Shown here: piece by piece, positions 20,849 to 51,220 of the stretch
Position numbering within the stretch: position 1 is the stretch's first letter
Layout of the letters: every line of letters starts with the position of its first letter
Notes under the pieces: generated by a model
The model's database searches: none
Told to the model about the DNA's origin: nothing
Seen by the model: the letters and a program-made list of their open reading frames with translations, nothing else
Assembly (NCBI GenBank): GCA_964523525.1
Contig: CAZFYO010000002.1
Coordinates: 133,038 to 197,037, forward strand
Length of the DNA stretch: 64,000 bases
Direction of reading: 5' to 3'
Source of the DNA: an uncultured Elusimicrobia bacterium
GTDB taxonomy: Bacteria > Elusimicrobiota > Elusimicrobia > 2-02-FULL-39-32
Made by a program: the position numbers and the translations under genes

Positions 20849-22033
20849 TCAGCTCAGCTTGTGCGTGCCGCCCTTGCGGCGCAAAAAAGCGGGACGGCGC
20901 AGATCGCCCAGATCGCTGTAGGGCTCGTCATTCTCATCGGCCGTAACCTTGAGGCGCGACGGAGCGGCGGGGTCGGACGGAGCCCGCCAGATCTGGCCTT
21001 CGTTCACGGGGATCCTGTAGTTGCGCTTCGAAGCGGCGGCGCTCGCGGAATTGGCGCGCTGCTGCTGGATCGGGAAGCCCGTGGATATCACGGTGATGCG
21101 GATCGAATCGTCCAGAGTTTCCTCGGTGCCCAGACCGCCGAACACCTTGGCGTCGGGCGAGACCACGGAGTAGATGTAGCTCATGGCGTCGCGCACTTCG
21201 TGCATGGTGACGCTGCGCTTCTTGCCGGAAATGTTGACGAGCAGTCCCTTGGCTCCGTCGATGGAAACGTTCTCGAGCAGGGGGCTCTGGATCGCCTGCT
21301 GGGCGGCGCGGATGGCGCGGTCGGGGCCGGTCGCTTCGCCGATGCCCATGAGCGCTTCTCCCGCGCCCGTCATGAGCGCTTTAACGTTGGCAAAATCCAT
21401 GTTCACTTCCTGCGGCCGCGTGATGACGTCCGATATGGCCTGGACGGCCTTCCTTAACACGTCGTCCACGATGCGGAAACAGTCTTCCCAGGGAGTGTCT
21501 TCCTCGACCACGCCGAAGAGCCGGTCGTTGGGAATGACGAGCACGGTATCCGCGAACTGGCGGATGTTCTTGATGCCCTGCTCGGCCTGGGCCGCGCGCA
21601 TGCGCCCTTCAAACTCGAAGGGGCGCGTGACGACGCCCACCGTCAAAATGCCCATTTCCTTGGCGACGCGCGCCACGACGGGCGCGGCGCCGGTGCCGGT
21701 TCCCCCGCCCATTCCGGCGGTGACGAAAACCATGTCGGAATCGGCGAGCGCGTTCTTCAAATCGTCCACGCTTTCTTCCGCCGCGAGGCGCCCCTTCTCG
21801 GGATCGCCGCCCGCTCCCAACCCCTTGGTGAGCGTCGCGCCCAACTGCATGCGGATCGGCGCCAGCGACTTGTGGCGCAGCCATTGAGCGTCGGTGTTGG
21901 CGGCCACGAATTCCACGTTCTGGACTTCGCTCTGGATCATGCGGTTCACGGCGTTGCCGCCGCCGCCGCCCAGTCCCACAACGCGCAGGATGGCCGGCTG
22001 GTCGGTAAAGTCTTCGGAAAACTTAATCTTCAT
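20849..22033 (-). CDS. ftsZ: cell division protein FtsZ
   Basis: 394 aa with the tubulin signature GGGTGTGAAP and the N-terminal GLGGGGGNAVNRM motif. Confidence 0.95.
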   Translation of the reverse strand: MKIKFSEDFTDQPAILRVVGLGGGGGNAVNRMIQSEVQNVEFVAANTDAQWLRHKSLAPIRMQLGATLTKGLGAGGDPEKGRLAAEESVDDLKNALADSDMVFVTAGMGGGTGTGAAPVVARVAKEMGILTVGVVTRPFEFEGRMRAAQAEQGIKNIRQFADTVLVIPNDRLFGVVEEDTPWEDCFRIVDDVLRKAVQAISDVITRPQEVNMDFANVKALMTGAGEALMGIGEATGPDRAIRAAQQAIQSPLLENVSIDGAKGLLVNISGKKRSVTMHEVRDAMSYIYSVVSPDAKVFGGLGTEETLDDSIRITVISTGFPIQQQRANSASAAASKRNYRIPVNEGQIWRAPSDPAAPSRLKVTADENDEPYSDLGDLRRPAFLRRKGGTHKLS

Positions 22034-22058
22034 GCGGGTCTCCTCGCCTGGTTGTGAT

Positions 22059-23291
22059 TTACAGAACCTCGTCCACCCATGCCATCACTTTCTTCATAAA
22101 CGAGCCGTTGCCGACCGTGCGGTGATTGCGCGTCCAGTCGCCGGCGTGCTTGTACTTCAAAAGCCCGATGGCCGTCGAATAAGTCGGATCGAAAACGATT
22201 TCCTGCGGGCCGTCCACGCCGATGGGCACGCCCAGGTGTACGCTCATGCCGAAAATTTCCTCGGCCGCCTTGTCGATGCCGGGCAGTTTGGAACAGCCGC
22301 CCGTGAGCACGATGCCGCCCGGGATGATTTCGGAGTAATTGGATTTCTGCAGTTCCTGCTGGATCAGCTCGAACACTTCCTCGATGCGGCTCTGGATGAT
22401 TTCGACCAGCGTGCGCTTCGGGACTTCCCGCTGGTTGCGGCCGTCCACCGCGACGAACTGGAGATTCATGTTGGAGTCGCCGTTCAGGAGGCTGCACATG
22501 GACAGCCCATGATGCTCTTTGAGCTCCTGCGCCACGGAAAAAGAGGTTTTAAGGCCGTACGATAAATCCTTGGTGATGAGCTCGCCGCCGATGGGCAGCT
22601 CTTTGGTGTAGCGGACGCTGCCGTCGACGTAAATCGTAAGGTTGGAAGTCTGCCCGCCCAGGTCGATGAGCGCGGCGCCGAGGTCCTTTTCTTCTTCGCT
22701 CACCACGCAGTCGCCCACGGCAAACGCGCCGTACACCAGGTCGCTGTACTCGAACCCGGCGAGGTTGATGGCTTTGACGATATTGGAAATATGGCTGGAG
22801 GAAGCGACCGCGATGTGGACGTCCACCGCAAGGTGCGAGCCTTCCATTCCGACGGGAACCATGACGCCGGACTGCTTGTCGACGGAAAAATCCTGCGGAA
22901 CGGTGTGGAGAATTTCGCGATCGGCGGAAAGCTGGATGGCTTTCGCGTTGGTGATCACATGCTCAAGGTCTTCGGCCGTGATTTCTTTGTCGGTGCGGGA
23001 AATGTTGATGGCGCCGCGGTGGTTGAACGTTTCGATGTGCGCCCCGCGCACTCCGACCAGCAACTTCTCGATGGTCTGGCCCGACGTTTCTTCCGCTTCG
23101 CTCACCGCGCGCTCGATGGCGCCGCGCGCTTCCGGAATATTGACGACGACTCCGCCCTTGATGCCGCGGCAGGGCGATTTGCCCGCGCCGAGCACCGTGA
23201 CGTGTCCCGTTTCCTCGTCGCGCGATCCGACGATCACGACGACCTGAGAACTCCCGATATCAATTCCCGCTTCTATCACCGATTTCGGCAT
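22059..23291 (-). CDS. ftsA: cell division protein FtsA
   Basis: 410 aa actin-like ATPase (IEAGIDIGSSQVVVIVG…; DLGGQTSNLTIY). Lies between ftsQ and ftsZ. Confidence 0.9.
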   Translation of the reverse strand: MPKSVIEAGIDIGSSQVVVIVGSRDEETGHVTVLGAGKSPCRGIKGGVVVNIPEARGAIERAVSEAEETSGQTIEKLLVGVRGAHIETFNHRGAINISRTDKEITAEDLEHVITNAKAIQLSADREILHTVPQDFSVDKQSGVMVPVGMEGSHLAVDVHIAVASSSHISNIVKAINLAGFEYSDLVYGAFAVGDCVVSEEEKDLGAALIDLGGQTSNLTIYVDGSVRYTKELPIGGELITKDLSYGLKTSFSVAQELKEHHGLSMCSLLNGDSNMNLQFVAVDGRNQREVPKRTLVEIIQSRIEEVFELIQQELQKSNYSEIIPGGIVLTGGCSKLPGIDKAAEEIFGMSVHLGVPIGVDGPQEIVFDPTYSTAIGLLKYKHAGDWTRNHRTVGNGSFMKKVMAWVDEVL

Positions 23292-23297
23292 GCTTTC

Positions 23298-24206
23298 TTA
23301 TCCTTTTAAATTTGACTTGGGTTCCGCCTGACTGATCTTCGTTTTCGGCCGGACGATGACCCGGCCCACCACTTCGCGCTCTTCGCCCAGCGCCGACGTT
23401 GAACGCTGCGGAACGCCGCGCAGGTTCACGTACTCCACTTCGATGGACCGCGCGACGAGGTCCCGCCAGACGTCGCGCAGGCGCCGGTACTTCTCGTCAA
23501 AGGTCGAGGCATCGTACGCGCCCCAGACGATGCGCAGGACCTGCCCGCCGAACGCGGGCGAGCGCACGTAAACGTTGAGCTCGTTCCACTGGTCCAGCGT
23601 CAGCTTGCGCAAGGCCAAGGGGTCTCCGCCCTGGCCCAAATCCGATTCCGCTTCCTTCCACGCGGCCAGGAACGCCAGGGCCCGCTGACGGTCTTCCGCC
23701 GCGGGCAAAACCGCTTCGGGAAGCTCCGCCGCCTCCGAGGGCGTCAGCGCCGCCGGAAAGACCGCGCCTTCGGAATCCAAAGCCTTCATGGAATCCTCGC
23801 GGCCGTCGGATTTGACCAGAGCCACCGGTTGGCGCAACGAATATTCCACTTTAATCCCGTCGGGCAGAACGCGCGCGACCTTCAAAGAACGGAGCTGCGG
23901 ATACTGCTTCATCCAATCGCGCTCGGCGCTTCCGAGGTCCAGACTGAACGCCGATCGACCTTTGAAGCGCGAAACTTTGGACTTCATTTCCGACGCAATT
24001 TTAGGATCGGCCTCCGAAACCTCGAACGATTTTATCATAAAAAAATCGGAAACAAATAGGAAGCGGTGCAGGGCGCCGGCCGCGATGGCGAACAGGACAA
24101 CGAACGCGAACTTTCCGAAAAGAAACGAGCGGATCCTGCCGAATCGCTCGCGCCGGACTTTGCTGCGCAGCGTGACCCGCTGGCGCCTTTTCCCCCGCCG
24201 CATCAT
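23298..24206 (-). CDS. ftsQ: cell division protein FtsQ/DivIB (POTRA-domain, single TM)
   Basis: 302 aa with a basic N-terminus, one TM helix (FAFVVLFAIAAGALHRFLFV) and a periplasmic domain. Lies between ddl and ftsA. Confidence 0.6.
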   Translation of the reverse strand: MMRRGKRRQRVTLRSKVRRERFGRIRSFLFGKFAFVVLFAIAAGALHRFLFVSDFFMIKSFEVSEADPKIASEMKSKVSRFKGRSAFSLDLGSAERDWMKQYPQLRSLKVARVLPDGIKVEYSLRQPVALVKSDGREDSMKALDSEGAVFPAALTPSEAAELPEAVLPAAEDRQRALAFLAAWKEAESDLGQGGDPLALRKLTLDQWNELNVYVRSPAFGGQVLRIVWGAYDASTFDEKYRRLRDVWRDLVARSIEVEYVNLRGVPQRSTSALGEEREVVGRVIVRPKTKISQAEPKSNLKG

Positions 24207-24225
24207 TGAAGATCCCCCGGCAAAC

Positions 24226-25134
24226 TCATAAAGATTCCCTGACCATTTCCAGCAGCAGCGCCTCGAAGGAATAGCCCGCGGCTTTCGCGGATTCCGGGAA
24301 AAGCGACGTCTCCGTCATGCCGGGAATGGAATTGAGCTCGAGCGCCCAGGGGCGGTTTTGTTTATCGACGATAAAATCCGTGCGCGAATACCCGCGGCAG
24401 CCGAGCGCGCGGTGCGCTTCAAGCGCGTAACGGCGGCAGAGCCCGTCCGCTTCCGCCGTGATGCGCGCGGGGATCAGATGGTTCGACATCCCCTTCCCGT
24501 ATTTTGATTTGTAATCGTAAAACTTTCCCTTCGGCACGATCTCGATGACCGGGAGCGCTTCGCCGTTCAGCACGGGAACCGTCACTTCGGTGCCCGCGAT
24601 GAATTTTTCGGCCAGCAGCCGCTTCGAAATTTTGCGAGCCGCTTTAAGCGCCGCCGAAGCGCCGGACGCGCTCCGCACGATGCTGACGCCGATCGCCGAG
24701 CCGCCGTCCACCGGCTTCACGACATAAGGCGGCTTGAACGAAACGGAATGGTCTCCGGATTCCAGGATTTGAAAGGGCGCCGTGGGAATTTTGTGGTGCG
24801 CGAAAACGATTTTGGTCGCGGCCTTGTCCATGGAAAGAGAACTGGCCAGCACGCCGGACCCTGAATAAGGAATTTTCATCACGTCCAGCATGCCCTGAAC
24901 GGTCCCATCTTCCCCCGGTTTTCCGTGCAGGGCGATGAAACAGAACCCCGCCCCGCTGTCTTTGATTTTTTTGGCCAGATCCGCGCCCGCCTCGATGCCG
25001 ACAGCGCGCAGTCCGAGTTTTTTGAATCCGTTCAGAACGGCCTTCCCCGTGCGGCGCGACACCGCCGCTTCGGGCGACGGCCCCCCGTAAAGCACCGCGA
25101 TTTTCATCCTTTTGAGTTTGGCTAAAGTATCCAT
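24226..25134 (-). CDS. ddl: D-alanine--D-alanine ligase
   Basis: ATP-grasp Ddl motifs (MKIAVLYGGPSPE…; HGKPGEDGTVQG; ELNSIPGMTETSLFP). The track ORF starts at 25182 and would overlap murB by 32 nt. A start at Met 25134 or 25107 is more likely. Confidence 0.85.
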   Translation of the reverse strand: MDTLAKLKRMKIAVLYGGPSPEAAVSRRTGKAVLNGFKKLGLRAVGIEAGADLAKKIKDSGAGFCFIALHGKPGEDGTVQGMLDVMKIPYSGSGVLASSLSMDKAATKIVFAHHKIPTAPFQILESGDHSVSFKPPYVVKPVDGGSAIGVSIVRSASGASAALKAARKISKRLLAEKFIAGTEVTVPVLNGEALPVIEIVPKGKFYDYKSKYGKGMSNHLIPARITAEADGLCRRYALEAHRALGCRGYSRTDFIVDKQNRPWALELNSIPGMTETSLFPESAKAAGYSFEALLLEMVRESL

Positions 25135-25150
25135 TAAATTGCTTCCTTGA

Positions 25151-26032
25151 CTAGCGTCCGACCATTTTGATTTCGGGCTCAAGGTCCACGCCGCATTTCT
25201 CTTTGACGGTCTTTTGCGCGTGCGCCACCAGGGCCTGAAAATCCTTCGCGGTGGCGCCGCCCGTGTTGACGAAAAAATTGGCGTGCTTGGGCGAAACCTG
25301 CGCCGCGCCGATTTTGAACCCTTTGAGCCCCGCCTGCTCGATCAGCTTCGCGGAAAAATTTCCCTCGGGATTTTTGAAAATGGAGCCGACGTTTTGCGTG
25401 CCGATGGGCTGGGTCTCGAGCCGTCTCGACAAAAATTCCTGGATGATTTTGAGCGTGGATTCTTTTTTGGCGGGAACAAGCTTCAGCGTGGCGAAGCACA
25501 GGATTTTTCCGCCCAGAGACGACCATCGGTACTTAAAATCAATCGCGTTGGCCGGTATGATTTTCATATTTTCCTGCTCATCCAGCACTTCGACGGATTG
25601 CGTGATGGTCCCCAGCCACAATTCGCGCGTGCCGCAGTTCATGATGAGCCCGCCGCCGACGGTTCCCGGGACGCCCACCAGAGGCTCCGCTCCTCCCAAC
25701 CCTTTTTCGGCGCAGGCTTTCACCAAAGTCGGCAAAAATACTCCCGCGCCGGCGCGCACCGTGTCTCCAGAAAACGTGAAGGTTTCGAATTCCCCCCGCA
25801 AGCGGATGACCAGCCCAGCGATGCCGGCATCGCTCACCAAAAGGTTCGAGCCGGCCCCCAGGATGAAAACAGGAATCTGTTTGGATTTTGAGAACGAAAT
25901 GAGGGATTTTAGATGGGAAACGGAGGCCGCTTCGGCGTACCACTCGGCGGGACCGCCGATGCCGAGCGTGGTGTGTTTGGACATTGGCTCGTTCGTCGAG
26001 ATCCGAGCACCTGATTCAAGCAACTGCTCCAT
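25151..26032 (-). CDS. murB: UDP-N-acetylenolpyruvoylglucosamine reductase
   Basis: 293 aa with an FAD-binding N-terminus (…HTTLGIGGPAEWY…FILGAGSNLLVSD) and a MurB C-terminal domain (…KNPEGNFSAKLIEQAGLKGFKIGAAQVS…). Confidence 0.85.
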   Translation of the reverse strand: MEQLLESGARISTNEPMSKHTTLGIGGPAEWYAEAASVSHLKSLISFSKSKQIPVFILGAGSNLLVSDAGIAGLVIRLRGEFETFTFSGDTVRAGAGVFLPTLVKACAEKGLGGAEPLVGVPGTVGGGLIMNCGTRELWLGTITQSVEVLDEQENMKIIPANAIDFKYRWSSLGGKILCFATLKLVPAKKESTLKIIQEFLSRRLETQPIGTQNVGSIFKNPEGNFSAKLIEQAGLKGFKIGAAQVSPKHANFFVNTGGATAKDFQALVAHAQKTVKEKCGVDLEPEIKMVGR

Positions 26033-26080: not shown

Positions 26081-29000
26081 TCAAGCTTGTTTCGCAATCA
26101 ATTCAGCGTCGCGCCAGATATTATCGATGTCGTTGCCATCGATCAGAGGCATGGCCTGAAAAAGGTCATTGATCACAAGTATCATTCCCTGCTTCAGCAG
26201 AGAAATCTGGGGCAGCACGGAGTATCCGGATAAATTCCCCATGAGGCCGCGATGAACGATGAAGACGTGCGTGCCGAAACCTTCCCGGCGGACACCTTCC
26301 GTCAAAGCATCCAATGCATTCCAGTTGACGTTCCAACCAGAAACCTCGTGCAGCGGATCAAACAAATTCTCGCTGCCCATAAAGAGCACTCGGACGATAC
26401 CTAACTCTCTTGCATATTGGGCGATGCGGTCCTTTTGATCCTGCGATAGGCCCGGCGCAAAAAAGCCAACTGCCGGCGCGTCGCGGCTGAGCTCTTCCGG
26501 ACGCTCTAACCTAGATAAAACGTTCATTGCAAACTCCTCGGCATCGGCACTCGGCGGAATTACGACGCCGATAAAGGGACGCTTGCTTTCCGAAAGAACG
26601 GTCGACAAGCGGCCGCCGATATCGGAGAATTCAACACCATTTAGAATCGCATCCACCGCATCGCGCAGAACCTGATCTATCGCGGGCGTTTTCGCAGAAT
26701 ATTTTGATTGACCCATCCCGCGTTTGATCCGAATCTGCTTTGCGATTTCGCGGACGAGAACATCCTGATCCAAGACCTTGGAAACGCCAGGCAGGGCTGC
26801 GTGATGCAAGACGCCACCCAAATCTTCCACACCGGATTTCTCAACCGGGCCAAGGATGGCGCCGATATGCGGCTCATCGCCGCTAACCAACAGACGCGCG
26901 ACGATTTCTTCCGGGGATGCGCTCCACCTCTCAGGAATGACACTTATCAAAGAACGGACCCAGCGAATCAAATTCGTTACAGGCCGATGAATCGCGTATA
27001 TATAAAGCGTTTGAAATCCTCTGTCCGTAAGAAATTGAGCAAATGAAAGAGACCGGTTCATCTTCAGGCGTATGAACTCGTGCCGATCAAAAATTGTTTC
27101 CAGCACCTGCGTACGAAGCGAAGCCAAGTCGGGCGACTCAGGATCAGATGAAATAAGACGCACGAGCCATTCCGAAATTTCCAACGTTTGGCGGCCATTT
27201 TCATTGATCACGCGAGCCTCTGCCTTGCCGCGATGTCCAAGATATGAATTAACGCGCACCTCAACGCTGTCCCACAGGCCACCTTCAAGAAGATGATATC
27301 CCGCTAATATATGCCTCAAGCGCTCAATGGCAAATAATTTTTCTGCGGAAGTTACAGGTTCGGACGAAACACTAAATGAAATTTTGGCCTTTTCAACCCA
27401 TCTGCGCTCTCTGCCGAAAGCTATACTTTGCAAGGCGAACAAGGACGCCGTGGTGAAGGAGAAAATCACAAACGACGGGCGCAGAAAATCCGGCACCGAT
27501 AAGCCCGATACCTGCCCCGCGAGAAGAAGAGCGGACTCCAGGGTAAACAGCAGGCCAGCAGAACCCGCGACAAAGCCGAAAGCGCGGCCCGCCCTCCGGA
27601 CATGGACCAGATCGTATGGCGAACCTGATTCCGCCGCGCGCTCCATCAGCCGATCAGAGCGGTTGCGGAGCCTGTCTGCCTCGGAAAGATATGCATCGCG
27701 AACCCGGTCGATGGAGGTTTGTGACGCCTGTCGACGCAATACGCTGATCGCAGCGCGAACAGCCGCATCAAATTCTCCTGCAGCGGCGCGGGGATCGCTG
27801 GACCAGCGCTCTTGCATTCTGATATCCGCCGCCGCTAAATTCTCCCAGCGCGCCAGGGTGTCCCGGATATACAACGGCCGATCCTCCCGGACGACAGCAA
27901 TGAGCTCGTCAGTACCGATCTTGAAAATATCTTCCGGTTTTTCCAAAATCCCCTTCGCAACTGCGAGTCGGCCCTGATTCAGCATCATTCGAGCGATTTT
28001 CCTCTGAAACGGAACGATCAGGTGGTGTCCGTCTTCGCGCAGGACGATCTCCATCCGCGACAAGGCGAGGATCACTTTTAGTTCAGGAAGCTTTTCAAAT
28101 ATATGCCTCGCATTTTGCTCATATCGGCCCGTTTCTTCCGATTGAGCCAAGAGCTGTTCGAGGACATCCGGAATTCTCGCTTCGATCTCTGCCGGGGAAA
28201 TGGAATTCATAGCAAGGACTTTGATATTCCCCATGGCTTCAGTGTTCCCGGTTTCAAAATCAGGATATTTGGACTCGAAGGCCAGTAGGCGTGCCCGGCT
28301 GGCGATCAGATCATAGAGAACCGGATCCTGGCCGCGAATTTTCTCGGCATCGTAGTCCTCCCAGCCGGAAAAAAGCCGGGCCAGCAACGGTATGCCGATG
28401 GTCGCGCCGCTTTTCAACCGGCCGTGCAGGTCCATGAGATACCGCGGCGTATCATCCAAAAGCTCGATATGCTCGCGCGTTTCCTTGTATTTGTCGGACC
28501 ATCCCCGAACCGCGTTCAGGATTTCAGGCGCGCCCATCTCCAACCTTTGTGCAATAGCAGCTGCCGCATCAACCCGGTTATCATTATTCAATTCAAACGC
28601 CGCCACAGCTGAAGGCGTCCGGCGGATTCGTTCCAGCAAGGCATAAATTTCCTTATCCTTGGCCCGAGACAACTCCAGCACCCAGCCTGGCTTGATGTCG
28701 CTTCGGAATGGATTAATGCTGCCGGATGGCAAGATGTCCGACACCGCAACGTCCCTTAAGTACGGATGCAGCTCCTTATGCAGATAAACGAGCCGGGGAC
28801 GGACGAGGTTTTCATCAACGATGACATCCAGCCAGAAACCGATGTGCATCCACACAAACGCATCAATCAACGCGTCTACCATCGCATCGACGTTTGAAGA
28901 ATCTAGGGTCTCGATGGATTCCGTGAACATCGCGAACTGCTGAAATCCCCTCCACCGGGCTTCATAGAGGTCTAAATAATCCTCCAGCGACAGGCCTTCG

Positions 29001-32000
29001 AGCCCGGAGAAAAAATGATAGATGTCTGCCGGATCGTTAGGAACCACCTGATGAAATAATGAAAGGCCCTTGGGCTCTGCTTTGATTTCGCGGCGCTGCG
29101 AGACCAGACGGAACGGGCTCCGCTCACCGTACGTCCCATTGAAAAAATCCGTCAGTTTATCCCAGGCCTTGTAATAGTAATCGAGCTGGAACCAGCCAAA
29201 CCCATCTGACCGGCGGCGCCACTCCCCTTCAAAATCATCTCCAAAAACCTCGGGCCGCTTGAGCTTGCTATCGGCCCAAGACCGAAATATTTCGTGAATT
29301 TCCTGACGCCCTTTAATCACGCTAAAAATGTCGGGATCTACGTTCCATATATTCAAATCCCGCTCTTCAATCAGGATGGGCATTTCGCCGAGGTATATCC
29401 TGCGGTGGTCCGCATCCAACGTGACGACCTGTCCGTTCCATTTTTTCAGGACATCAATGGCTTCGGCAGCGCCCACGATGCAGGGGATTCCTATGGCCTG
29501 GGCATTTTGCGCTGCGTGGGACGTAACCCCGCCATCCGTGGTCACCACCGCGGCCAGTTTTGCAAACACGGCATTCCACTCGTTGTTGGTATGGTGCGTC
29601 ACAAGAATCGCCCCCGGCGTTGCATCGCGATGCTGGTCCGTTGACTCTATGATTTGCAAGCGGCCGACCACTGCCCCCGTGTTTGCGATTCGGGATGACG
29701 CTCCCAATGTAACCTGGGGAGCCGACCGGGCGGTTTCCGATTTATCATCTACAACCGATACGGAAATCGTAAACTGGCCGCCGCTTTTATTTGCAGCTTT
29801 CACTGCCTTAGGTCGGGCCTGAAGGATATAAAGTTCACCATTCTCGCCAAAACAAAATTCGATATCGAGTTGCTCCGCCCAGTCCTTGTTCAGATAGTGT
29901 CTTTGAAGGTTCCCCGATAGGAGGCTCAACCTCAAAACCTCCACGTCACTCAAACTGGGGTCATCTCCAATTATGGACTCTTCGCGAACCCCGCCGCCCC
30001 TGCCCGCCGCAATGCGCGCCCGCTTAGGCACGATCGACTTGTCGAAAATAACGTCGCCCATATATCCCGTTATCCACCGATCACTGCCATAGCTGTTCTG
30101 CTGAACGACGCCTTCCCCAAGGCCGGGCTGGGCTTCAATGACGTGGAGAGGCCACTGCGTTTCATCATGCACCGTGAATAGCACTCCTGCGGCCTTGGGA
30201 TCCACGAATTGCTGGAGAACGACCGCCATTCGCGCCTCTTTTTCCGAAAAGCCGAGTGTTTTGCGGTGAGTGACGAACTCCTTCGAATAAAGACTGGCCC
30301 AGACTTTCTTGATATCGGAAAACAGTTCTTCTTCTGTGATGATGTGCAGGAAGGATTGCGCGAGCCCCGCGGCGGAGGAGCCCTCGATATCTTCAACGTT
30401 GGCGGAACTACGCGCCGCGACATCGCGGCCCAGTTTTCGAAAAACGTCGCTCAGCCCCTTTCGGAGCCCGACAGGCATTTCCATACGGGTGATACGTGTC
30501 CTGAGTGCCGAGGCCGTTTCCTCAATGCCGTTCTCGGACGATTCGGATTCCAGTTTTTCCACCAACCTTGAGACTTCCGGATCCGCGAGAACATAGCGTT
30601 CAAACGCGGCAGTGGTCAGCACTTCGGTCTCCGGAACCTTGAAATGAAGCCCATCTCGATTCCTGTAAACTTTGGAGATATCCCGGAGACGGTGCAGATT
30701 TAACCCCTTGCCCCCCACGAGGTGCAATCTGCCGGACATGGGATGCGCGGCCGGCAAAATGTCTGTGACCTGTGACCATATATCATCGTTTCCAAAATAG
30801 GGAGCAACCAGGTCCTGGGCGAAGTCCCGGGGCCCACGCAGGAAGCGGGCGCGGACCTTGTCCCAGTTTTCGAAGCGCATCAAATCGGAATCTGCGCCGT
30901 CATAATCCGGAGCCTGGCCCGAGACACCCAGGTTATCAATCGCGCGTTTCCGGGCTCCTTGCTTGCGGGTAATGATGCGGGATATTTCATTTTCTTCCGC
31001 AGCATTCAAGACATACACCATGAGCGTGGACTCGTCGTTCGAATCCATTGGAAATACGTAAGGAATTCCCGTCCGAGCCCGAACCTCCTCAGCTGCCGAC
31101 TGAACCGGGGACCGGGTGCGTTGAGGATTGACCGAATAGAGGCTCAGGCACCGCGTAAAAGAATTGTAGTCAGCGAAGATTTTTTCGCCGCGGAATCGGG
31201 AGGAGAAATCTCTCAAAATTTCGCGAAGCATTTCTTCTTCCAATTCACTGAAGGCAAAGAAATCATAGCTGATCATCCCGGTCCGAAAAGAACCGGCGCT
31301 ACCCACCGTTTCCAGCCTGCGGAGATCAGGCGTAATGCCCACTTCTTCCTGAACCGCGCGAGCAGCGGCGGCTTCCAGGGTCTCGCCATCTTTCGGTTTT
31401 CCATTGGCGGACACTGTCCACTTGTAGGGAAACGACCGCTTGAAGGCGCCGCGTTGCTGCAAAAGCACTTTACGACGGCTGGAATCCATGACCAGAATCT
31501 GGACCGAACGGCCACTGGTGCCTTGAGTCCAGCTTCCGCCACTCAGCGCTTTGGCGAAGAGCCGGGAAACGTAGCGCAGAGATAAGAGCTTATCCCGCAT
31601 ATCCAGCGCCGAACCAAACGCCAGGTTTCTCTCCATCTGGCTCTGAATTTCCTGGCCGGCTGTTCTGGATCCGGCGAAGTCCCCTTCGCCAAAACGTTCT
31701 CGCATTTTCTTCGCGCGCTCTACCTGCCCTTCCTGCACCGCACGGCGAACATCATCCCTGAGTTTATTTTCGGGCACGGAATACAGGAACTCCGCTGCAG
31801 TGCGATCAACTACCGGAAAGGATCCTCCAGCGGAGCGCATGATTCGCCTGTCCTGCCAACTTGCGGTAAAATAATCCGAACCCTGCGGCACATAGGCAAA
31901 GACGACTCCTCCTTTAGGCACACCGCTGACCGCCATAGAAAAATTTCCATAGGCTTCAAACAGATGAAATGCGGGCTTCTGGACATTGCGCAGCATTTCA

Positions 32001-35000
32001 AACTGAAGCGCTCCCACCGAAAACAGGTAATCCGCACCATTCACTGCAGCAAAAGCTTCTCCGGAAAGGCGGCTCATGTCGGTACCCTCATGCGGCGGAC
32101 CGTTCCCAATTAGATTAAAGCGCCCCTTCTCCTGCAGTCCCCTCAGCGGCTCAAAAATCGGGTCTTCCAGTATTTCAAGGGTACTCAAATAACTGAGATC
32201 AGTCCGGTAATTCGCCCTTTTGGGAATGAAGTTGATGCTCAAATTGGGACTCTCCAGCAGCATCTCCATCGCAAGTTTTAGAACGAGGACCGATTCGCCG
32301 TTGTCATCCGGCAGCCAGGCAACCGTAACGGGGGTTTTTGCATTCAGGACGGAGTTTTCGAAATGCGAATATGCGTCAATTGCGGGGACAGTGCTATCGA
32401 AGGACGCGAGCTTTTCCATGTTTGCCACGGCGATGGCATCCGCGGTACCAGACTCGCGCCCGTCATACATTTCGTATTTTAGGATTTCAAAAACACGCGC
32501 TGAACGCAGGAGGAGTTGGCGGACGGATAATCCCGGCTCGAATCGACGCAGCATAGCCAATGCGGTCGCATTGGAAAGATCGTTGCGCTCGCGGTAGGGA
32601 TCGAAATCGGGGTCCTGGATTTTTCCAGTCGCAATGATCTCTATGATTTGCATCGTGAGCAGGCCTCGTTGCCAAGTCGTAAGGCCGGACTCCAGGGAGG
32701 AACCGTCATCCATGGGAATTTTCCAGGCCAGTTCCAGGAGTTCCAGCCCGCGGGCCGTTAAGGTTGAAAGCGCTCGATCCTTGTCCTTCCGGCGCATCAG
32801 ACCGTTGGAAATTTTCTGATCCAGCCAAAGCGAAAGATCCCTTTCGATGAGCTTGCGTCCGACGATCCTATCTTCGCTCTCTTTTTCCATCCCGGCAACG
32901 TCGCCGGCAAGGTATGCGCTTGAAACATAACCACGGCCTACAATTTGCTCGAGGTCATGATTAGCCGCGGAAGGTGGTGACCGCGGCAGAAGGGTTTCCA
33001 GAATACGCCGGCGCTTGGCGGAGATGTCACGATATTGAATGGATTCTTTCCAGCCGAGATCTTTTTTAAGGATGTCATAAAGTTCGTGAATGGCGCTTTC
33101 AGATGACTGAAACTCGTTTACCGACGGTCTCACCTGATCCGAGATTGTGCCAGAGGATCTGAACTGACTGACAAAAACAAACGCATCAAATGCAATGTGG
33201 GCTGCGATTGCGGGCAGGGGATGAACGGCATACATCAGAAAAAGTGCGGACGAGCCCCATTGCAGGCGGCTCCAGGGAGAACCGCGCACCCGTCGCGGCG
33301 CGAGCGCGATAAAATATGGAACGTGCATGGCAGCGTACAGAGAGATCACGGCGAGGAATACCGGAGGCTCCAGCCAGCCCGGAAGGAGCCAGGCGCCCAA
33401 TATGATTTCTGCAAACGTTCCCGCCGCCCCTATCGCGGCAAGATGCGCGCGATTTCTCACTCCTGCCACTTGAGCAGCCAAATACGCCATTGAATTCGCG
33501 GCCGCGACTCTCGAACTGAAAATGGCCATCCGGGCGTCGACAAAAAGTGACAGAATTCGGCTGACCCCGGTAAATCCGGCACCTGCCTCATCCACGTTCA
33601 TTTGGCCCGTATCGGGGTCCTTTGAAACTGAATACTTCATGGATCCGTTGGGGCCCGAGACGGAAACCCGGACCCGTCCGGGCCCGGCATCTTGCAGCCG
33701 GGCCGTGAAGCCATTGGCCGCTTCGCCCAGCGCCATGGACATACCGGCATCCACCTCCCGGGCGTCGAGATGAGTATCTGCCCCGTTCGCGATTTCTTCA
33801 AGGGCGAGCCGATCAATCGCAGCGGATCGTTGCGCTTCTAAAGTCCATGGCTCGATTGAGACGAAAAGTTTTTCACCGCTAAAAAGCTTTTCGATGGGGG
33901 TTTTCTCCCGGGCGAAAATGGAAAGATATTGCGCGCCGCCGAAGGTTTCAATCTTTTCGACTTTCGGTGAAAGCGTCAGCACCGCTACGCCGGATGCAGA
34001 GATATCTTTTTCGATAGCGGACGAATGAAAGCCTCCCGCGACCAGCACCGCAACGTTGCTCCCGCGCTCCTTCATCTCCCGCAGGAGCTTGAAAGACATG
34101 GCGCGATCGCGAAGAGTCGCCTCTCTGAAAAACTCCTCAAACATCGCGAGCTCCGGATCTTTGCCTGCCAGAGATTGATACGCTCTCCACTCCCCGGGTG
34201 AGAGGGAATAGTCCAGAAGCCGGCCAGTTAGTCCCGCTGCGCGGGACTGCTCCAGTAGCCTTTTCTCATCCTCGGACCGGACCAGAACCCTGTATGCGGA
34301 GGCCTCCAACGCCCCCAGTTGATCAAAAAATTTATCTGAGCGGATCCCGTCCGACAGTGCGGCGTATCGGACGTACCGGACCAACTCCGGAAATTCAGAA
34401 AACCGGACGCCGTGCTTTTTCCCTATGCTCTCCAGCCGGCCGTAAAATTCCGAATGGTCAAGCTTGCCACATCGGTAAGCAATCGCAGCGTTTGCAAGAT
34501 TCTCGGATTCCCTCCGACCGATCGAGCGCGCCAGCTGCCCAAGAAAATCGCCGCGCTGTTTTTCCACCGCTCTGAAATCTATAGAAGATTCCATGTTCAG
34601 GACAACCAAAAATTTCCGCACTTCGTCGGAGTCCTCCGCCAGAGGTGTGACTGCAGCCAGGGCCCGGACGTACTGGCCCAGCGGGATCTTTTCGCCGCGA
34701 TGAGACTGCACCACCCTGTCGAACGCGAGGAGCCGGGGATTGAACGTCTCGAGTTTCCGGCGCTCCAGTTGCAGCTGAACTCGCTTCAGCTGCCGAAGTC
34801 GCGCGGGCGCGGCCGCGAAAGAACCGAGATAGGCGCTCACGTTCGCCGCGTAGCGCTGGCGGTCGTCCACGCCGGTAAAAATAGGAGCCCTGCGCGCGGT
34901 CAGGCCGGCATGCACGGGGCCGGTAATTTTATTTTTCTTCAGAAGGAAATCAGCGACTGTAACTGTCGATTCCAGCTTACCGGATGATCTGAATTTTTCC

Positions 35001-35461
35001 AGATCCAACGGACCAAAGGCGCCCTCGAGCGCAACGAAGTCGACACCGCCCTCATTGATCAGCTGGTGAACAGATGCTGATATATTTTTTTGAGCATCCT
35101 CATTCAGGTGAATGTCCTGAATATGGATCACGACAGGCTGTCCGGCTTTCCAACCGGGAGGAACCAGAGCCCTGCGAAGGTTTGAGAATTCAAGCGGCAG
35201 CCGCGGCAAATCTCCGGCAATTCCTGACAGGTCCTCGCGCGCATTCAAATCGGCAGAACGCAACGGGCGTAGGCCCGGCATAGCCACTGAAGGAGCGGAC
35301 GGGGCGGCCGCTTCTATCCAATGATTCACGGATCTAGCCTGATTGGCCAGGAGCAATGGGGCGGTTACAAAGTTTTGCAGGAGGCACGCGGCCAGAAAGA
35401 CCGCGAAAAGTTTGCGGCAGGGGTTCTGTCGGTGGGAAGTTCCGGCTAAGCGGAGACCCAT
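26081..35461 (-). CDS. giant multidomain membrane protein 1 (3126 aa). It has a signal anchor, a paralogous N-terminal domain, a TM cluster, a possible DUF89-like domain, a NUDIX domain and a PEP-utilising dikinase-like module
   Basis: Uninterrupted 9.38-kb ORF. The ATG at 35461 overlaps the stop of giant gene 2 by 16 nt. Domains were assigned from motifs read in the translation (see the separate entries). Confidence 0.85.
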   Translation of the reverse strand: MGLRLAGTSHRQNPCRKLFAVFLAACLLQNFVTAPLLLANQARSVNHWIEAAAPSAPSVAMPGLRPLRSADLNAREDLSGIAGDLPRLPLEFSNLRRALVPPGWKAGQPVVIHIQDIHLNEDAQKNISASVHQLINEGGVDFVALEGAFGPLDLEKFRSSGKLESTVTVADFLLKKNKITGPVHAGLTARRAPIFTGVDDRQRYAANVSAYLGSFAAAPARLRQLKRVQLQLERRKLETFNPRLLAFDRVVQSHRGEKIPLGQYVRALAAVTPLAEDSDEVRKFLVVLNMESSIDFRAVEKQRGDFLGQLARSIGRRESENLANAAIAYRCGKLDHSEFYGRLESIGKKHGVRFSEFPELVRYVRYAALSDGIRSDKFFDQLGALEASAYRVLVRSEDEKRLLEQSRAAGLTGRLLDYSLSPGEWRAYQSLAGKDPELAMFEEFFREATLRDRAMSFKLLREMKERGSNVAVLVAGGFHSSAIEKDISASGVAVLTLSPKVEKIETFGGAQYLSIFAREKTPIEKLFSGEKLFVSIEPWTLEAQRSAAIDRLALEEIANGADTHLDAREVDAGMSMALGEAANGFTARLQDAGPGRVRVSVSGPNGSMKYSVSKDPDTGQMNVDEAGAGFTGVSRILSLFVDARMAIFSSRVAAANSMAYLAAQVAGVRNRAHLAAIGAAGTFAEIILGAWLLPGWLEPPVFLAVISLYAAMHVPYFIALAPRRVRGSPWSRLQWGSSALFLMYAVHPLPAIAAHIAFDAFVFVSQFRSSGTISDQVRPSVNEFQSSESAIHELYDILKKDLGWKESIQYRDISAKRRRILETLLPRSPPSAANHDLEQIVGRGYVSSAYLAGDVAGMEKESEDRIVGRKLIERDLSLWLDQKISNGLMRRKDKDRALSTLTARGLELLELAWKIPMDDGSSLESGLTTWQRGLLTMQIIEIIATGKIQDPDFDPYRERNDLSNATALAMLRRFEPGLSVRQLLLRSARVFEILKYEMYDGRESGTADAIAVANMEKLASFDSTVPAIDAYSHFENSVLNAKTPVTVAWLPDDNGESVLVLKLAMEMLLESPNLSINFIPKRANYRTDLSYLSTLEILEDPIFEPLRGLQEKGRFNLIGNGPPHEGTDMSRLSGEAFAAVNGADYLFSVGALQFEMLRNVQKPAFHLFEAYGNFSMAVSGVPKGGVVFAYVPQGSDYFTASWQDRRIMRSAGGSFPVVDRTAAEFLYSVPENKLRDDVRRAVQEGQVERAKKMRERFGEGDFAGSRTAGQEIQSQMERNLAFGSALDMRDKLLSLRYVSRLFAKALSGGSWTQGTSGRSVQILVMDSSRRKVLLQQRGAFKRSFPYKWTVSANGKPKDGETLEAAAARAVQEEVGITPDLRRLETVGSAGSFRTGMISYDFFAFSELEEEMLREILRDFSSRFRGEKIFADYNSFTRCLSLYSVNPQRTRSPVQSAAEEVRARTGIPYVFPMDSNDESTLMVYVLNAAEENEISRIITRKQGARKRAIDNLGVSGQAPDYDGADSDLMRFENWDKVRARFLRGPRDFAQDLVAPYFGNDDIWSQVTDILPAAHPMSGRLHLVGGKGLNLHRLRDISKVYRNRDGLHFKVPETEVLTTAAFERYVLADPEVSRLVEKLESESSENGIEETASALRTRITRMEMPVGLRKGLSDVFRKLGRDVAARSSANVEDIEGSSAAGLAQSFLHIITEEELFSDIKKVWASLYSKEFVTHRKTLGFSEKEARMAVVLQQFVDPKAAGVLFTVHDETQWPLHVIEAQPGLGEGVVQQNSYGSDRWITGYMGDVIFDKSIVPKRARIAAGRGGGVREESIIGDDPSLSDVEVLRLSLLSGNLQRHYLNKDWAEQLDIEFCFGENGELYILQARPKAVKAANKSGGQFTISVSVVDDKSETARSAPQVTLGASSRIANTGAVVGRLQIIESTDQHRDATPGAILVTHHTNNEWNAVFAKLAAVVTTDGGVTSHAAQNAQAIGIPCIVGAAEAIDVLKKWNGQVVTLDADHRRIYLGEMPILIEERDLNIWNVDPDIFSVIKGRQEIHEIFRSWADSKLKRPEVFGDDFEGEWRRRSDGFGWFQLDYYYKAWDKLTDFFNGTYGERSPFRLVSQRREIKAEPKGLSLFHQVVPNDPADIYHFFSGLEGLSLEDYLDLYEARWRGFQQFAMFTESIETLDSSNVDAMVDALIDAFVWMHIGFWLDVIVDENLVRPRLVYLHKELHPYLRDVAVSDILPSGSINPFRSDIKPGWVLELSRAKDKEIYALLERIRRTPSAVAAFELNNDNRVDAAAAIAQRLEMGAPEILNAVRGWSDKYKETREHIELLDDTPRYLMDLHGRLKSGATIGIPLLARLFSGWEDYDAEKIRGQDPVLYDLIASRARLLAFESKYPDFETGNTEAMGNIKVLAMNSISPAEIEARIPDVLEQLLAQSEETGRYEQNARHIFEKLPELKVILALSRMEIVLREDGHHLIVPFQRKIARMMLNQGRLAVAKGILEKPEDIFKIGTDELIAVVREDRPLYIRDTLARWENLAAADIRMQERWSSDPRAAAGEFDAAVRAAISVLRRQASQTSIDRVRDAYLSEADRLRNRSDRLMERAAESGSPYDLVHVRRAGRAFGFVAGSAGLLFTLESALLLAGQVSGLSVPDFLRPSFVIFSFTTASLFALQSIAFGRERRWVEKAKISFSVSSEPVTSAEKLFAIERLRHILAGYHLLEGGLWDSVEVRVNSYLGHRGKAEARVINENGRQTLEISEWLVRLISSDPESPDLASLRTQVLETIFDRHEFIRLKMNRSLSFAQFLTDRGFQTLYIYAIHRPVTNLIRWVRSLISVIPERWSASPEEIVARLLVSGDEPHIGAILGPVEKSGVEDLGGVLHHAALPGVSKVLDQDVLVREIAKQIRIKRGMGQSKYSAKTPAIDQVLRDAVDAILNGVEFSDIGGRLSTVLSESKRPFIGVVIPPSADAEEFAMNVLSRLERPEELSRDAPAVGFFAPGLSQDQKDRIAQYARELGIVRVLFMGSENLFDPLHEVSGWNVNWNALDALTEGVRREGFGTHVFIVHRGLMGNLSGYSVLPQISLLKQGMILVINDLFQAMPLIDGNDIDNIWRDAELIAKQA
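29380..30715 (-). other. PEP-utilising-enzyme module inside giant protein 1: ATP-grasp nucleotide-binding domain plus phosphohistidine swivel domain, with no PEP/pyruvate TIM-barrel domain
   Basis: The VGGKGLNL glycine loop sits at 30700-30717. The …DIEFCFGENGELYILQARP motif ends the ATP-grasp part. The swivel domain reads GAILVTHHTNNEW…VVTTDGGVTSHAAQNAQAIGIPCIVG, with the catalytic His codon at 29516-29518. Confidence 0.75.
31130..31530 (-). other. NUDIX hydrolase domain inside giant protein 1 (non-canonical box with RA in place of RE)
   Basis: The Nudix box is GKPKDGETLEAAAARAVQEEVGI at about 31332-31401, matching Gx5Ex7R[E→A]UxEExGU, and is preceded by a VLLQQRGAFKRSFPYKWTVSANG strand. 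Confidence 0.55.
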
Positions 35462-38400
35462 ATAATTCGGTTGGCCTTCCAGCTGTTTTCTAGCGTTGCG
35501 GGGTTCAGTGTTTCAGCGGCATTGATTCGAAGGTTGCCAGTAGCGTCATCATAGGAAATCGCGCCTCTTTCACTATCGCTGAGATTGAGCTGTTCTAAAA
35601 TGGACCGGAGCATCCTCGCCGCCTGCGGACCTCTGAGGTTGATGGTTTTGCCGACGTCCAAGATCATGGCGACCCCTTCGATGTCCCACTTTGCCGCATT
35701 TTGGGTCAGGACCTGGATAACCAGGTTTGCTTTGGAGTGATACTGAGCCGCAATGCGGCCCGCTTGAGCCATGGCGTCGGCGGGAGTGTGATAGAGGATC
35801 ACGAAATCTTCGGGAAGCCCGGTGCCTTTTGAAATTTGTCCTTTCAACTGTTCGGCTTCGACTTCGGAAAGAGAAATCTGCGAAACGTCGAACGCCATGA
35901 ACATACGGCCTCGGCTTTCGGGATCGTCCCGATCTTGAAGAAGAGCGAGATAGTGATCGGCAAGCGCCGGAATCGCGGCAGAGATCCCCGAGGGCGAGCG
36001 CTGCGGCGCGCCGCTGTCGACCAGGAGGATCCGTGTTTCATTGAGATGTGACTCCGTCACGGCGGACAGGATTCTACCTTCGATCTTAGGCATCGGCATT
36101 TGCCTGGGAGAGAGAGCCGTTGAATCACCCTGGATATTGCGGACCGTAGCTTTAGATGCGAAGCCGGACAAAGCCAAACCAACAGCAGCAGTCCAAGAAC
36201 CCGGTCCCGAAATCAATACTACCGCCTGGCGCGGTAACAAGGCGGCAAATCGAGCGTTCTGAAGGGCCCCCATCCATTGGACCTTTGAGAAATACCGGGT
36301 AAGGGCATCCCTGCTCAATAATCCCCCGACCGCAGCCGCGCCTGCGGTGAATGCGATGGTCCCTCGTCCGGTTCCAACTGAGTGAACTTCTTCAAATTTG
36401 GAAAAGAGCGCTCCCACCACTGGAAGGACCTCAAGCAGTCGCCCAGCGCCGGCGAAGGAGGAGACGACATCCAGAGCCAGTTTTTCAGGAGCAACCGCAA
36501 GTCCCGAAGCCAGTTCGCCGAGCAGCTGCTGGGCGAGCTGATTCTGCCCGCCGACTGACAAGCCATGCCAGATGTCCGGGGCACCAGCAACGCCTGCAAA
36601 ACCCATAGCGGCAGCACTCAACGACGCAAACAGAACGAGAGGTTTGAATATGGAATGCGCGCGAACCGACAAAAAGGTTGCGGCGCCCGTTACAGCCGGC
36701 GCCGATTTCATTTCTCCAGAGTCCTTGATGTTCGCAGACGCGTTGATCCGCTGATGAACAACCGCGAGTATCGCGAAGGGGACTGCGGAATTCTGCATTC
36801 CCAGAACGGGGACCAATCCAGCAGCCAATCCCGAGAGTGCCGAAACCACAAGCACGTCTCGGCTGATCAGGACTTTCCAGTTCCAGCCGGAAACGTCAAA
36901 GACGGAGGAGCCGCTCCGCCTTTCCTGAACGACGCGGATTATATGGGAACTCAAAAGAGTGGACGCGGCGGCGATACCAAAGGAATGCCCCGCGGCATCT
37001 ACACCGAGCAACATCGCAAGCCAGGCGGGTAATGCGATCAGCAAGGTTTCGGCTAGCCAGGCGATCTCACGGTACTGCATGAAGCCGAATCTCTGGCCGG
37101 GTTTGAAAATCATTCCGCCACCCTTCGCTGACTTGAACGGGTTTGGAGTCCCGATCTTTTCAAAAAACTGATCCGCATTTTCAAACTCCGTAATTGGATA
37201 GCCGATCCAGGGCTTACCGGGATCAACAAGTTCCAAATACTCCGGCGGAATTTCCGTGCCTTTGAAATCACCCGCAAAATCGTAAAGCTCTCCGCCGCGG
37301 ACCCTGTTTTCCAGGATAGTGGGAGCGTCTTTTTTGACTCGCAGCCACAGGTAAGGAATATTCCACCGTGTACTCCCTTCGTAAGGCGAGTTTTGAATCG
37401 TTCCCAAATAAAACCGCGAGTCCCAAAAAAAGATCCTGTCCGGACGTTCGCCGCCCTGCGTGTGGCGCACACTTAATCCGTGTTCCTTGATCGAATTGAA
37501 ATCTCCCTTCGACTGGTGGAAAACGTACTGGTCGAGAGAGCGTTTGCTCTCCAGGACCGGCGTCATGGACCTCAGCAGGTCCAGGCCCCGAGGATCGGCA
37601 CCGACCAGATCTCCAGCGGTTTCGATGGCTTGCAGTTTGCCCATCAATTTCGCGTGGATATTCTGAAGCCTGCTCTCCACAGCCGGGGAAGTGATTTTTT
37701 TGAAATCGGTCCGCCGCCCCTCCCTCCGATCGAACTCATCGCGGTTTTGCCTCAAAGTGGGAATGGTCCAGCCCGTGCCGTAATATATATGATCGTCGTA
37801 TGTTTCCATGTAGGCGAGAAAATACAGTGTCCTGCGGGCAGCTTCTACCTCGTATGGATCGCCATAGGTCAAGATCCGCTGAATGCTTCGGTCCATAAGC
37901 CGGCCAATAACCCGCTCTAATACCGGGAGCAAAGCCGCGGGCTGCTCCGACTGGGCGATCAGGTATTTCCGGTACAGATTGAGCAGGAGGTGCTGCGCTC
38001 CAACCGTAGGTTGGGATAGCAGAGCGAATATCTGCTCTTCCCAGGCCGTGAGATCCTCCGGCATTGCCCCTATGAACCTCAGCACGTCCGCGGCGGCCTT
38101 CTCGTCCGCCGAATATTCCGCACCGAAAGGCAGCGTCGGGACATGTTCGAAATCAGGGATAACCGCGGCCGGAGATACGGGCGCAGCGTAATCGCTTTCC
38201 CGCAGAGCCGGAACGAGGGACGGGTCCACCGCGTTTTCATATATTTTCACGTATTGTGGAACCAATTCGTTCCAGGACTTTGGCGCGGACATGGCGCGGC
38301 GCTGCATGCCGGAGAAACCCTGCGACTGCTCTCTGTACAAAGCCAGAGCCTGCGTCAGGGCTCGAACATACGCGCGCTCCTGCGCCTGCGGATCCATGCT

Positions 38401-51216: not shown

Positions 51217-51220
51217 GATA

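Follow-up and report, generated by a model that had tools for sequence, protein, structure and literature searches.

A short helix at the extreme C-terminus unites four giant proteins encoded in a 64,000-nucleotide stretch of DNA from an uncultured Elusimicrobia bacterium (contig CAZFYO010000002.1), hereafter referred to as the window. The proteins, designated G1, G2, G3 and G4, correspond to four very long minus-strand open reading frames (ORFs), which were identified by ORF calling and translation. Our results show that their common tail is an extreme C-terminal amphipathic α-helix of ~18-22 residues, ending in ...Φ-x-x-[Q/S]-Ala-COOH. The shared C-terminal motif claimed in the original prediction, which was made from the sequence of the window, is real: it recurs family-wide in independent genomes, keeps a fixed register and is supported by its ranks in a held-out profile test. 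A recognition element would be expected to lie, as the tail does, at a constant distance from the free carboxyl end. Judging from the sequences, docking or sorting is the most likely role of the tail, and we infer that a protein partner recognizes it.

A C-terminal helix in the giants and their relatives

Translation of the four ORFs confirmed the tail ends and positions given in the original prediction, whose coordinate ranges each begin at the stop codon. The tails are listed below with their ranks among the scoring windows of the respective protein, as obtained with a position-specific scoring matrix (PSSM).

26084-26131, minus strand: tail of G1, DIDNIWRDAELIAKQA, PSSM rank 1 of 3103 windows in G1
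35449-35496, minus strand: tail of G2, TLENSWKANRIIWVSA, PSSM rank 1 of 2455 windows in G2
42915-42962, minus strand: tail of G3, ALLEDIKANSVILRQA, PSSM rank 3 of 2758 windows in G3
51224-51271, minus strand: tail of G4, DFDRLWTEVQMILKQA, PSSM rank 1 of 4198 windows in G4

BLAST comparisons within the window paired only the tails of G1 and G4 (7 of 16 residues identical, E=8), so that the similarity of the four tails taken alone is not significant, and relatives were therefore used to settle the question. The motif is absent from all 23 other genes of the window. As described below, relatives can be recognized by an N-terminal module (N-module) that the giants share, and the best 78 of the 332 N-module-encoding stretches detected in GTDB representative genomes served as a sample of loci. 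In these 78 Elusimicrobiota loci, 24-25 of the 32 N-module ORFs longer than 1400 residues end in [QSN]A or x-A. Similarly, 100 of the 112 representatives with a length of at least 1500 residues end in A or x-Q (...Φ-x-x-[Q/S/A..]-A), always flush with the C-terminus. Such an ending was found in none of the 12 representatives shorter than 1000 residues, which are probably fragments.

A right-anchored, ungapped alignment, counted backward from the last residue, yielded the following tail profile:

Positions -1 to -4: A at -1 (93%), Q/S/A/F/M/Y at -2, A/L at -4
Positions -5 to -8: I/V/A/L at -5 (89% apolar), mostly apolar residues at -8 (75%)
Positions -10 to -14: a charged residue at -10, L/I/F at -11, polar residues at -13 and -14
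Positions -15 to -22: L/I/M at -15 (85% apolar), D/E at -16, I/L at -22

The hydrophobic positions (-1, -4/-5, -8, -11, -15 and -22) thus follow a heptad-like pattern with a spacing of three to four residues, and the tail usually follows another apolar helix and a Pro-containing turn. The mean hydrophobic moment of the tails amounts to 0.37, compared to 0.23 for internal 18-mers. Across the family, the last 18 residues have a mean net charge of -0.3 and a mean hydrophobicity of ~0.05; the net charges of the tails of G1 to G4 are -2, +1, 0 and -1, respectively. AlphaFold2 (AF2) places a terminal helix both in P0094 (residues 1020-1040), a natural family member of 1041 residues that has both conserved ends, and in a model of the C-terminal part of G1 (residues 221-234).

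When a PSSM was trained on one half of the family and scored on the other, the C-terminal 24-mer outscored every other window of the protein in 37 of the 59 members held out. Among 688 control ORFs of 100-1000 residues from the same loci, 14 end in [QSN]A and only three fit the strict motif. Two of these three are pieces of giants, one being the G4 orthologue of the closest relative (locus L002, JANLTE010000390.1), which ends in VNKKDFDAVWKGVQLILKQA. In the PSSM test, the five top-scoring control C-termini belong to N-truncated or giant-adjacent ORFs that are probably giant pieces as well, and the sixth lies ~1.1 kb upstream of a giant. The proposed specificity of the tail for this system therefore holds for the C-termini sampled (none of the 23 window genes and three of the 688 control ORFs), and both the control ORFs and the PSSM controls speak against a composition effect operating genome-wide, which had been named as one way in which the idea might fail.

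The giants form one paralogous family

In one respect the original prediction needs to be revised: the four giants are not otherwise different megaproteins but paralogues, all of which share an N-terminal leader and an N-module of ~550 residues. The N-terminal ~550 residues of G1, G2 and G3 match one another in BLAST comparisons (E values of 1e-22 to 1e-45). The window contains G4 in part, as an exact substring of database protein P0038 that starts at residue 3415; full-length G4 comprises 7634 residues, begins with ...IAEANIWDDRK...HVQDAH, and thus has a leader and an N-module like G1-G3, matching the N-module profile at residues 15-537. Since the giants form a single paralogous family, the tail represents inherited family anatomy rather than convergence. 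The window giants combine the three hallmarks of the family, i.e., the N-module, the leader and the flush tail helix.

The 332 stretches recovered in the genome scan with the N-module come almost exclusively from metagenome-assembled genomes (MAGs) of Elusimicrobiota; among the best 78, a single assembly contributes as many as 11 loci. A few stretches come from Omnitrophota bins or from bins that carry the label Clostridia. An exhaustive HMMER search of 1.84 billion cluster representatives returned 9159 proteins at E≤1e-3 and 5096 at E≤1e-30, with lengths of up to ~8000 residues and the N-module always located at residues ~1-600. Family members are called 'hypothetical protein' in the source annotation, profile scans detected no Pfam or NCBIfam model for either end of the giants, and we found no description of the family or its tail in Pfam, NCBIfam, the PDB or the searchable literature. 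A word-indexed homologue search with the N-module of G3 gave no matches; as HMMER found 9159 relatives of this module, null results from searches of this type are unreliable for the family.

The leader consists of [KR][KR], an apolar segment of 17 residues in which Y/F-F, T-N and A are conserved, and the sequence [HPY]-A-[AP]-E-[AST]-N-F-W-x-E-R-R-[RK]. It carries K/R on both flanks of its apolar segment, as well as an AxA-like site, and its register is fixed in 171 of 185 members (P0001-P0185), a degree of conservation far above that of an ordinary Sec signal peptide. In the window giants, the part after the apolar segment was compared with the pattern E-x-x-[FLI]-W-x-[ED]-R-[RK]; it reads AQASLWSERRK in G2, AEANLWEQRK in G3 and AEANIWDDRK in G4, and it is degenerate in G1 (LLANQARSVNHW). 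In the window, the leaders are found at the following N-termini:

51150-51203, minus strand: leader of G3
42780-42882, minus strand: leader of G2
35380-35461, minus strand: leader of G1

For the N-module of P0094, AF2 predicts a structure with pLDDT (predicted local distance difference test) scores of ~90 over residues 80-635. PF04187 (ChaN, Tiki superfamily) matches seven of eight N-modules with E values of 1.6e-7 to 0.03, and the motifs H-I-Q-D-x-H, E-G and G-G-F-H are conserved. Sequence searches of the PDB with profiles of the N-module and the C-terminal domains returned nothing useful.

Some family genes are interrupted in the available assemblies. The G4 orthologue in L002 is broken by an in-frame TAA at 4723-4725, with homology continuing across the stop (RALTRLE*LKLK compared to RAVARLTELRH), and could represent a pseudogene, an assembly error or a split gene. 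In several loci from nanopore-derived MAGs (e.g., L047 and L041), N-module ORFs are split from the tail-bearing part, probably due to frameshift errors.

Selection acting on the tail

As judged from the coding sequences, the tail is selected at the protein level, since the underlying DNA is poorly conserved, the codons for the terminal Ala are used about evenly, and the stop codons differ. The four window tails are only 33-57% identical at the DNA level. In a set of 31 tails from the window and the loci, the terminal Ala is encoded by GCG (9), GCA (9), GCC (8) or GCT (5), position -2 is specified by 13 different codons, and translation ends at TAA in 24, TAG in six and TGA in one case. The low DNA identity and the varied codons also argue against a recent duplication of a single piece of DNA, the second way in which the original prediction might have failed.

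An artefactual origin of the likeness, be it through chance, composition, recent DNA duplication or overlapping downstream start codons, would be in line with the insignificant similarity seen within the window and with the overlap between the G2 tail codons and the start codon of G1, but this reading is already refuted by the family-wide occurrence of the motif in independent genomes, its absence from control C-termini, the DNA-level divergence just described and its presence in genes that are not closely followed by another start, murB beginning 48 nt after G1.

C-terminal domains beneath the tail

The last ~210-220 residues of G1 form a domain that an iterated hidden Markov model (HMM) search detected in 11 other members; in all 12 cases, no more than 0-1 residue separates its end from the C-terminus. 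In the AF2 model, it comprises a Rossmann-like core with pLDDT scores of 65-86, followed by a helix-Pro-turn-helix element whose two helices score 41-51, and Foldseek returned only generic Rossmann-like matches (E values of 5e-3 or weaker). Across the family, the C-terminal regions fall into many BLAST clusters, which hhalign joins into at least two or three superclusters that align over 140-226 columns up to the C-terminus, with probabilities of 77-97%; three supercluster types are not linked to one another. In profile-profile comparisons, the last 260 residues of G2, G3 and G4 match none of the C-terminal-domain profiles. The tails are therefore the only C-terminal element shared by the four window giants, with the last ~20 residues as the sole stretch that is detectably common to them.

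Gene organization and embedded enzymes

The giant genes and their main parts are arranged in the window as follows:

26081-35461, minus strand: G1, 3126 residues, with the stop codon at 26081-26083 and the ATG at 35461, identical to database protein P0002; leader, N-module, NUDIX domain, phosphoenolpyruvate (PEP)-synthase-like ATP-grasp and swivel domain, C-terminal domain with tail
26084-26749, minus strand: C-terminal domain of G1, ~210-220 residues (iterated HMM search, hhalign, AF2 model)
33760-35461, minus strand: leader and EreA/ChaN/Tiki-like N-module of G1 (PF04187, E=0.0019)
35446-42882, minus strand: G2, up to 2478 residues, with the stop codon at 35446-35448; leader, N-module, GlgA (GT5) at residues 1051-1553, tail
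41080-42882, minus strand: leader (..PPLAQASLWSERRK) and N-module of G2 (BLAST between giants)
42912-51257, minus strand: ORF of G3, with the stop codon at 42912-42914 and, from the ATG (42912-51203), 2763 residues; leader, N-module, PGM/PMM domains I-IV, tail
49308-51203, minus strand: leader (..VPVAEANLWEQRK) and N-module of G3 (BLAST between giants)
51221-64000, minus strand: G4, C-terminal 4259 residues, with the stop codon at 51221-51223; runs off the edge of the window

The reading frame of G4 is free of stop codons up to base 64000, the ORF list having placed a GTG start at 63886. G1 begins with an ATG (35461) that is contained in the final codons of G2 (ATA TGG GTC TCC GCT TAG), so that the two genes overlap by 16 nt (35446-35461). 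The tail of G2 is the least canonical of the four (IIWVSA, with W at -4), and its double coding with the start of G1 may account for this deviation. Same-strand tandem arrays of giants are found in 11 loci besides this window.

The embedded enzymes of the window giants are apparently intact, as far as catalytic and signature motifs can tell, which are preserved in GlgA, PGM and the swivel domain of the dikinase. The GlgA domain of G2 is full-length (TIGR02095, 411 bits at a cut-off of 328) and contains the KVGGV and PSLFEPGG motifs, the PGM/PMM domains I-IV of G3 have a TASHNP active site, and G1 combines a NUDIX domain with a PEP-synthase-like ATP-grasp and a swivel domain with the motif GGVTSH, corresponding to a dikinase that lacks the PEP-binding domain. 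The enzymes of the window giants have a glycogen/glucan theme in common, with PGM/PMM in G3, an ADP-glucose-type GlgA in G2, and a dikinase together with NUDIX in G1. Among the domains found in other family members are protein kinase, radical SAM plus B12-binding, glycogen phosphorylase, HATPase_c, SLOG, DUF1861, HEAT, TPR and macro domains. A reading of the giants as non-ribosomal peptide synthetases (NRPS) or polyketide synthases (PKS) was rejected, because Pfam scans revealed sugar-metabolism enzymes and no PKS/NRPS domains in any of them.

The giants are located directly upstream of murB, ddl, an ftsQ-like ORF, ftsA and ftsZ (20849-26032, minus strand), with a gap of 48 nt between G1 and murB, so that ~48 kb of giant genes sit inside or at the edge of a division/cell-wall (dcw) cluster. 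The proximity of ftsA and ftsZ, together with the likeness of ILKQA/ILRQA to the ...FLRKQAD end of the E. coli protein, gave rise to the idea that the tails mimic the C-terminal peptide of FtsZ and bind FtsA. This candidate was discarded: FtsZ of the organism ends in ...DLRRPAFLRRKGGTHKLS, the tails lack P-x-F-L-R, and position -3 is not basic family-wide. Roughly 15 kb downstream of the giants, the window encodes a 940-residue protein with Peptidase_MA_2 and PD40/TolB-like β-propeller repeats (7755-11495, minus strand), followed by a TPR protein of 305 residues.

Possible functions of the tail

Tentatively, and with less than even confidence, we favor the idea that the tail is a protein-protein docking helix whose preferred acceptor is the N-module of the family itself. 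The hydrophobic face of the helix and the free C-terminal Ala would then insert into a partner, preferably the EreA/ChaN/Tiki-like N-module. Docking could occur in cis, such that the far end of a giant is tied back to its membrane-proximal head, or it could link paralogues that are expressed together, so that the PGM, GlgA and dikinase giants of the operon would form one assembly. The N-module is preferred as the acceptor because it is the only other part that all members share and because the known relatives of its fold have peptides and other small ligands as substrates or binding partners. The EreA/ChaN/Tiki fold family includes peptide- or protein-acting members, such as Tiki, PrgY/TraB and RRSP. 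A docking function is further favored by the arrangement of the giant genes in arrays whose products cover consecutive steps of one pathway, and by the finding that, in the data examined, the tail occurs only together with the N-terminal leader and the N-module. A portable short element is plausible since only the last ~20 residues are common to the four window giants.

Several points weigh against this interpretation. The assignment of the N-module to the EreA/ChaN/Tiki fold is weak: a single N-module passes the gathering score of PF04187 (32.0 compared to a threshold of 27.7), with the others remaining below, and the top Foldseek match, the erythromycin esterase EreC (6xcq), has an E value of 0.1 and a probability of 0.57. 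The tail helix has pLDDT scores of only 41-57 in the AF2 models of P0094 and G1. Paralogous tails within one genome vary at positions -2 to -8, and if each tail bound its own head, tail and head would be expected to co-vary. The confinement of the tail to N-module proteins applies to the loci sampled. In the G1 subfamily, it ends a domain of ~210 residues and may simply be a structural helix; a word-indexed search with this G1-type domain, a search type that is unreliable for the family, gave no matches.

Ranking close behind docking is the possibility that the tail acts as a sorting or secretion signal, which would be read together with the leader by a dedicated machine encoded elsewhere in the genome. 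In the manner of T1SS (type I secretion system) signals, T9SS (type IX secretion system) C-terminal domains, PTS1 or encapsulation peptides, it would have the giants exported or localized, with the envelope, vesicles or another cell as conceivable destinations. Consistent with this idea, the motif sits right at the C-terminus with an almost invariant Ala as its last residue, the leader that accompanies it is conserved to an unusual degree (171 of 185 members), and the family has numerous paralogues in a genome that differ in exchangeable cargo domains, as is typical of the substrates of dedicated sorting systems. Moreover, the diversity of tails within a genome fits a single tolerant receptor. 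However, the cargo consists of cytoplasmic, nucleotide- or cofactor-dependent enzymes with intact motifs (GlgA, PGM, dikinase, NUDIX, kinases and radical SAM/B12 proteins), and the invariant R-R-[RK] after the apolar segment disfavors Sec export. In addition, no recurrent partner gene was found near the family genes in the 78 loci, and hence no transporter.

Going one step further, it is tempting to speculate that the leader and the flush tail helix constitute a two-ended address, by which the Elusimicrobiota would sort or assemble proteins along a pathway not known so far, an extension that we regard as doubtful. Such an address would place the enzyme-carrying giants at a specific site, such as the envelope, a membrane-tethered metabolic scaffold or another cell, and would imply a dedicated receptor for the ...Φ-x-x-Q/S-Ala-COOH end. 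In the window, the cargo would then be a complete glycogen-metabolism set (PGM, GlgA and dikinase/NUDIX).

It is unlikely that the tail is purely structural, a helix that merely closes a diverged C-terminal domain and is better conserved than the rest because it packs into the core. This notion agrees with the fact that the end of G1 (~210 residues) is a domain shared with 11 other members, that the C-terminal domain clusters can be joined up to the C-terminus (140-226 columns, hhalign probabilities of 77-97%), and that the tail comes after a helix and a Pro-containing turn. On the other hand, the last 260 residues of G2, G3 and G4 match no domain profile and the supercluster types are unlinked, yet all have the same end helix. 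Ordinary domains end raggedly, whereas the giants almost always stop exactly at Ala, and the AF2 model of G1 does not confidently pack the last two helices on the core, which itself scores 65-86.

There is little chance that the tail is a degron or protease tag of the ssrA/ClpXP or Tsp/Prc type, serving to control the turnover of these costly proteins. ClpX and Tsp do read a non-polar C-terminus with a free carboxylate, and the tails end in Ala in 93% of cases and in A-A in 18 of 110. However, position -2 is mostly polar (Q/S/N), position -3 is often R/K/Q/T, the ~20 residues conserved with helical periodicity go far beyond the needs of a degron, and nothing in the data ties the tail to proteolysis. 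A tmRNA gene that would permit a comparison with the cognate tag was not found in the window.

A role as a membrane-targeting amphipathic helix of the MinD/FtsA type, which would bring both ends of a giant to the membrane, appears highly improbable as well, even though the tail is a C-terminal amphipathic helix, the N-terminus has an apolar membrane-type segment and the giant genes immediately precede murB-ddl-ftsQ-like ORF-ftsA-ftsZ. The mean charge of the tails is -0.3 (-2 for G1 and -1 for G4), compared to +4 for the MinD and +3 for the FtsA helix, the tails are unlike the C-terminal peptide of the organism's FtsZ (...RRPAFLRRK...), and membrane targeting leaves both the conserved terminal Ala and the polar residue at -2 unexplained.

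Implications

Elusimicrobiota have been reported to be among the phyla richest in huge, essentially unannotated proteins (PMC11573180; bioRxiv 10.1101/2023.11.21.568195), and the giant family is not described in the searchable papers on such proteins. Its two short conserved ends provide a signature of, and a handle on, thousands of uncharacterized giants (9159 or more representatives), which carry otherwise ordinary enzymes such as GlgA, PGM, dikinases, kinases and radical SAM proteins. The tail in particular is a small and experimentally tractable element that could reveal how giants are assembled and localized. Our findings also raise the question of why core enzymes of glycogen metabolism reside in megaproteins within a cell-division gene cluster. 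If the tail had a dedicated receptor, it would define a new protein-sorting system; if it docked on the N-module, it would represent a new way of building enzyme super-assemblies.

Comparison with known systems

The tail resembles known terminal docking and address peptides but differs from each of them in defining features. PKS/NRPS docking and COM domains are similar in that they are short terminal helices on co-operonic modular megaproteins, thought to order and join successive giants. However, the window giants lack carrier-protein or condensation chemistry, their candidate acceptor is an enzyme-like module of ~550 residues instead of a short N-terminal helix, and the same kind of tail is found on every paralogue, each with an N-terminal apolar leader, in place of pair-specific codes.

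T1SS signals, such as those of HlyA and other RTX proteins, are likewise uncleaved, include an amphipathic helix, end in small residues and form the very C-terminus of proteins of great length; HlyA, for instance, ends in ...TASA. T1SS substrates, however, have no N-terminal leader, contain RTX or Ca-binding repeats and are encoded next to ABC transporter and membrane fusion protein (MFP) genes. The giants, in contrast, have an apolar leader, show no RTX repeats in Pfam scans, and have neither an adjoining ABC/MFP gene in the window nor a recurrent neighbor in the 78 loci. Furthermore, T1SS signals lack the fixed register to the last residue that characterizes the tail. Encapsulation peptides of bacterial microcompartments and encapsulin cargo peptides are terminal amphipathic helices or peptides of ~18 residues that suffice to address diverse, unrelated enzymes to one assembly, but the window harbors no shell or encapsulin gene, and the giants comprise 2400-7600 residues and have a membrane-type leader.

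PEP-CTERM/exosortase, GlyGly-CTERM, T9SS C-terminal domain (T9SS CTD) and LPXTG signals, which were defined in silico, share with the tail a lineage-restricted terminal motif on many paralogues with variable passengers. These signals contain either a transmembrane helix together with a basic cluster or a β-sandwich domain, and they co-occur with a dedicated sortase. The tail differs from the PEP-CTERM, LPXTG and GlyGly-CTERM signals in being a soluble, roughly neutral helix with no apolar stretch or basic end. Unlike the T9SS CTD, a β-sandwich of ~80-100 residues, the C-termini of the giants are predicted to be helical, and the G1 domain is Rossmann-like α/β with no Pfam match. Compared to MinD/FtsA-type targeting sequences, the tail is amphipathic but not cationic.

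The N-module, in turn, resembles the EreA/ChaN/TraB-PrgY/Tiki proteins, with a PF04187 match around V-L-V-A-G-G-F-H and EreC as the top structural match, but it differs from them by a large helical insertion (helices at 217-480 in the P0094 model) and mostly sub-threshold scores. To our knowledge, a fusion to giant proteins has not been described for this superfamily.

With the PTS1-PEX5, PDZ/Tsp and ssrA-ClpX systems, finally, the tail has in common an exact last residue, a small non-polar end and, presumably, a free carboxylate. Those signals span 3-4 residues, whereas the tail extends over ~20 residues with helical periodicity and is usually polar at -2; a check for an ssrA-like L-A-A end found Ala in 93% of tails at -1 but in only 18 of 110 at -2, which is usually Q/S. 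No description of the family was found in searchable sources, and, going by its sequence, the tail appears to be a variant of the terminal recognition helix, here as part of the anatomy of a paralogous family of giant proteins.

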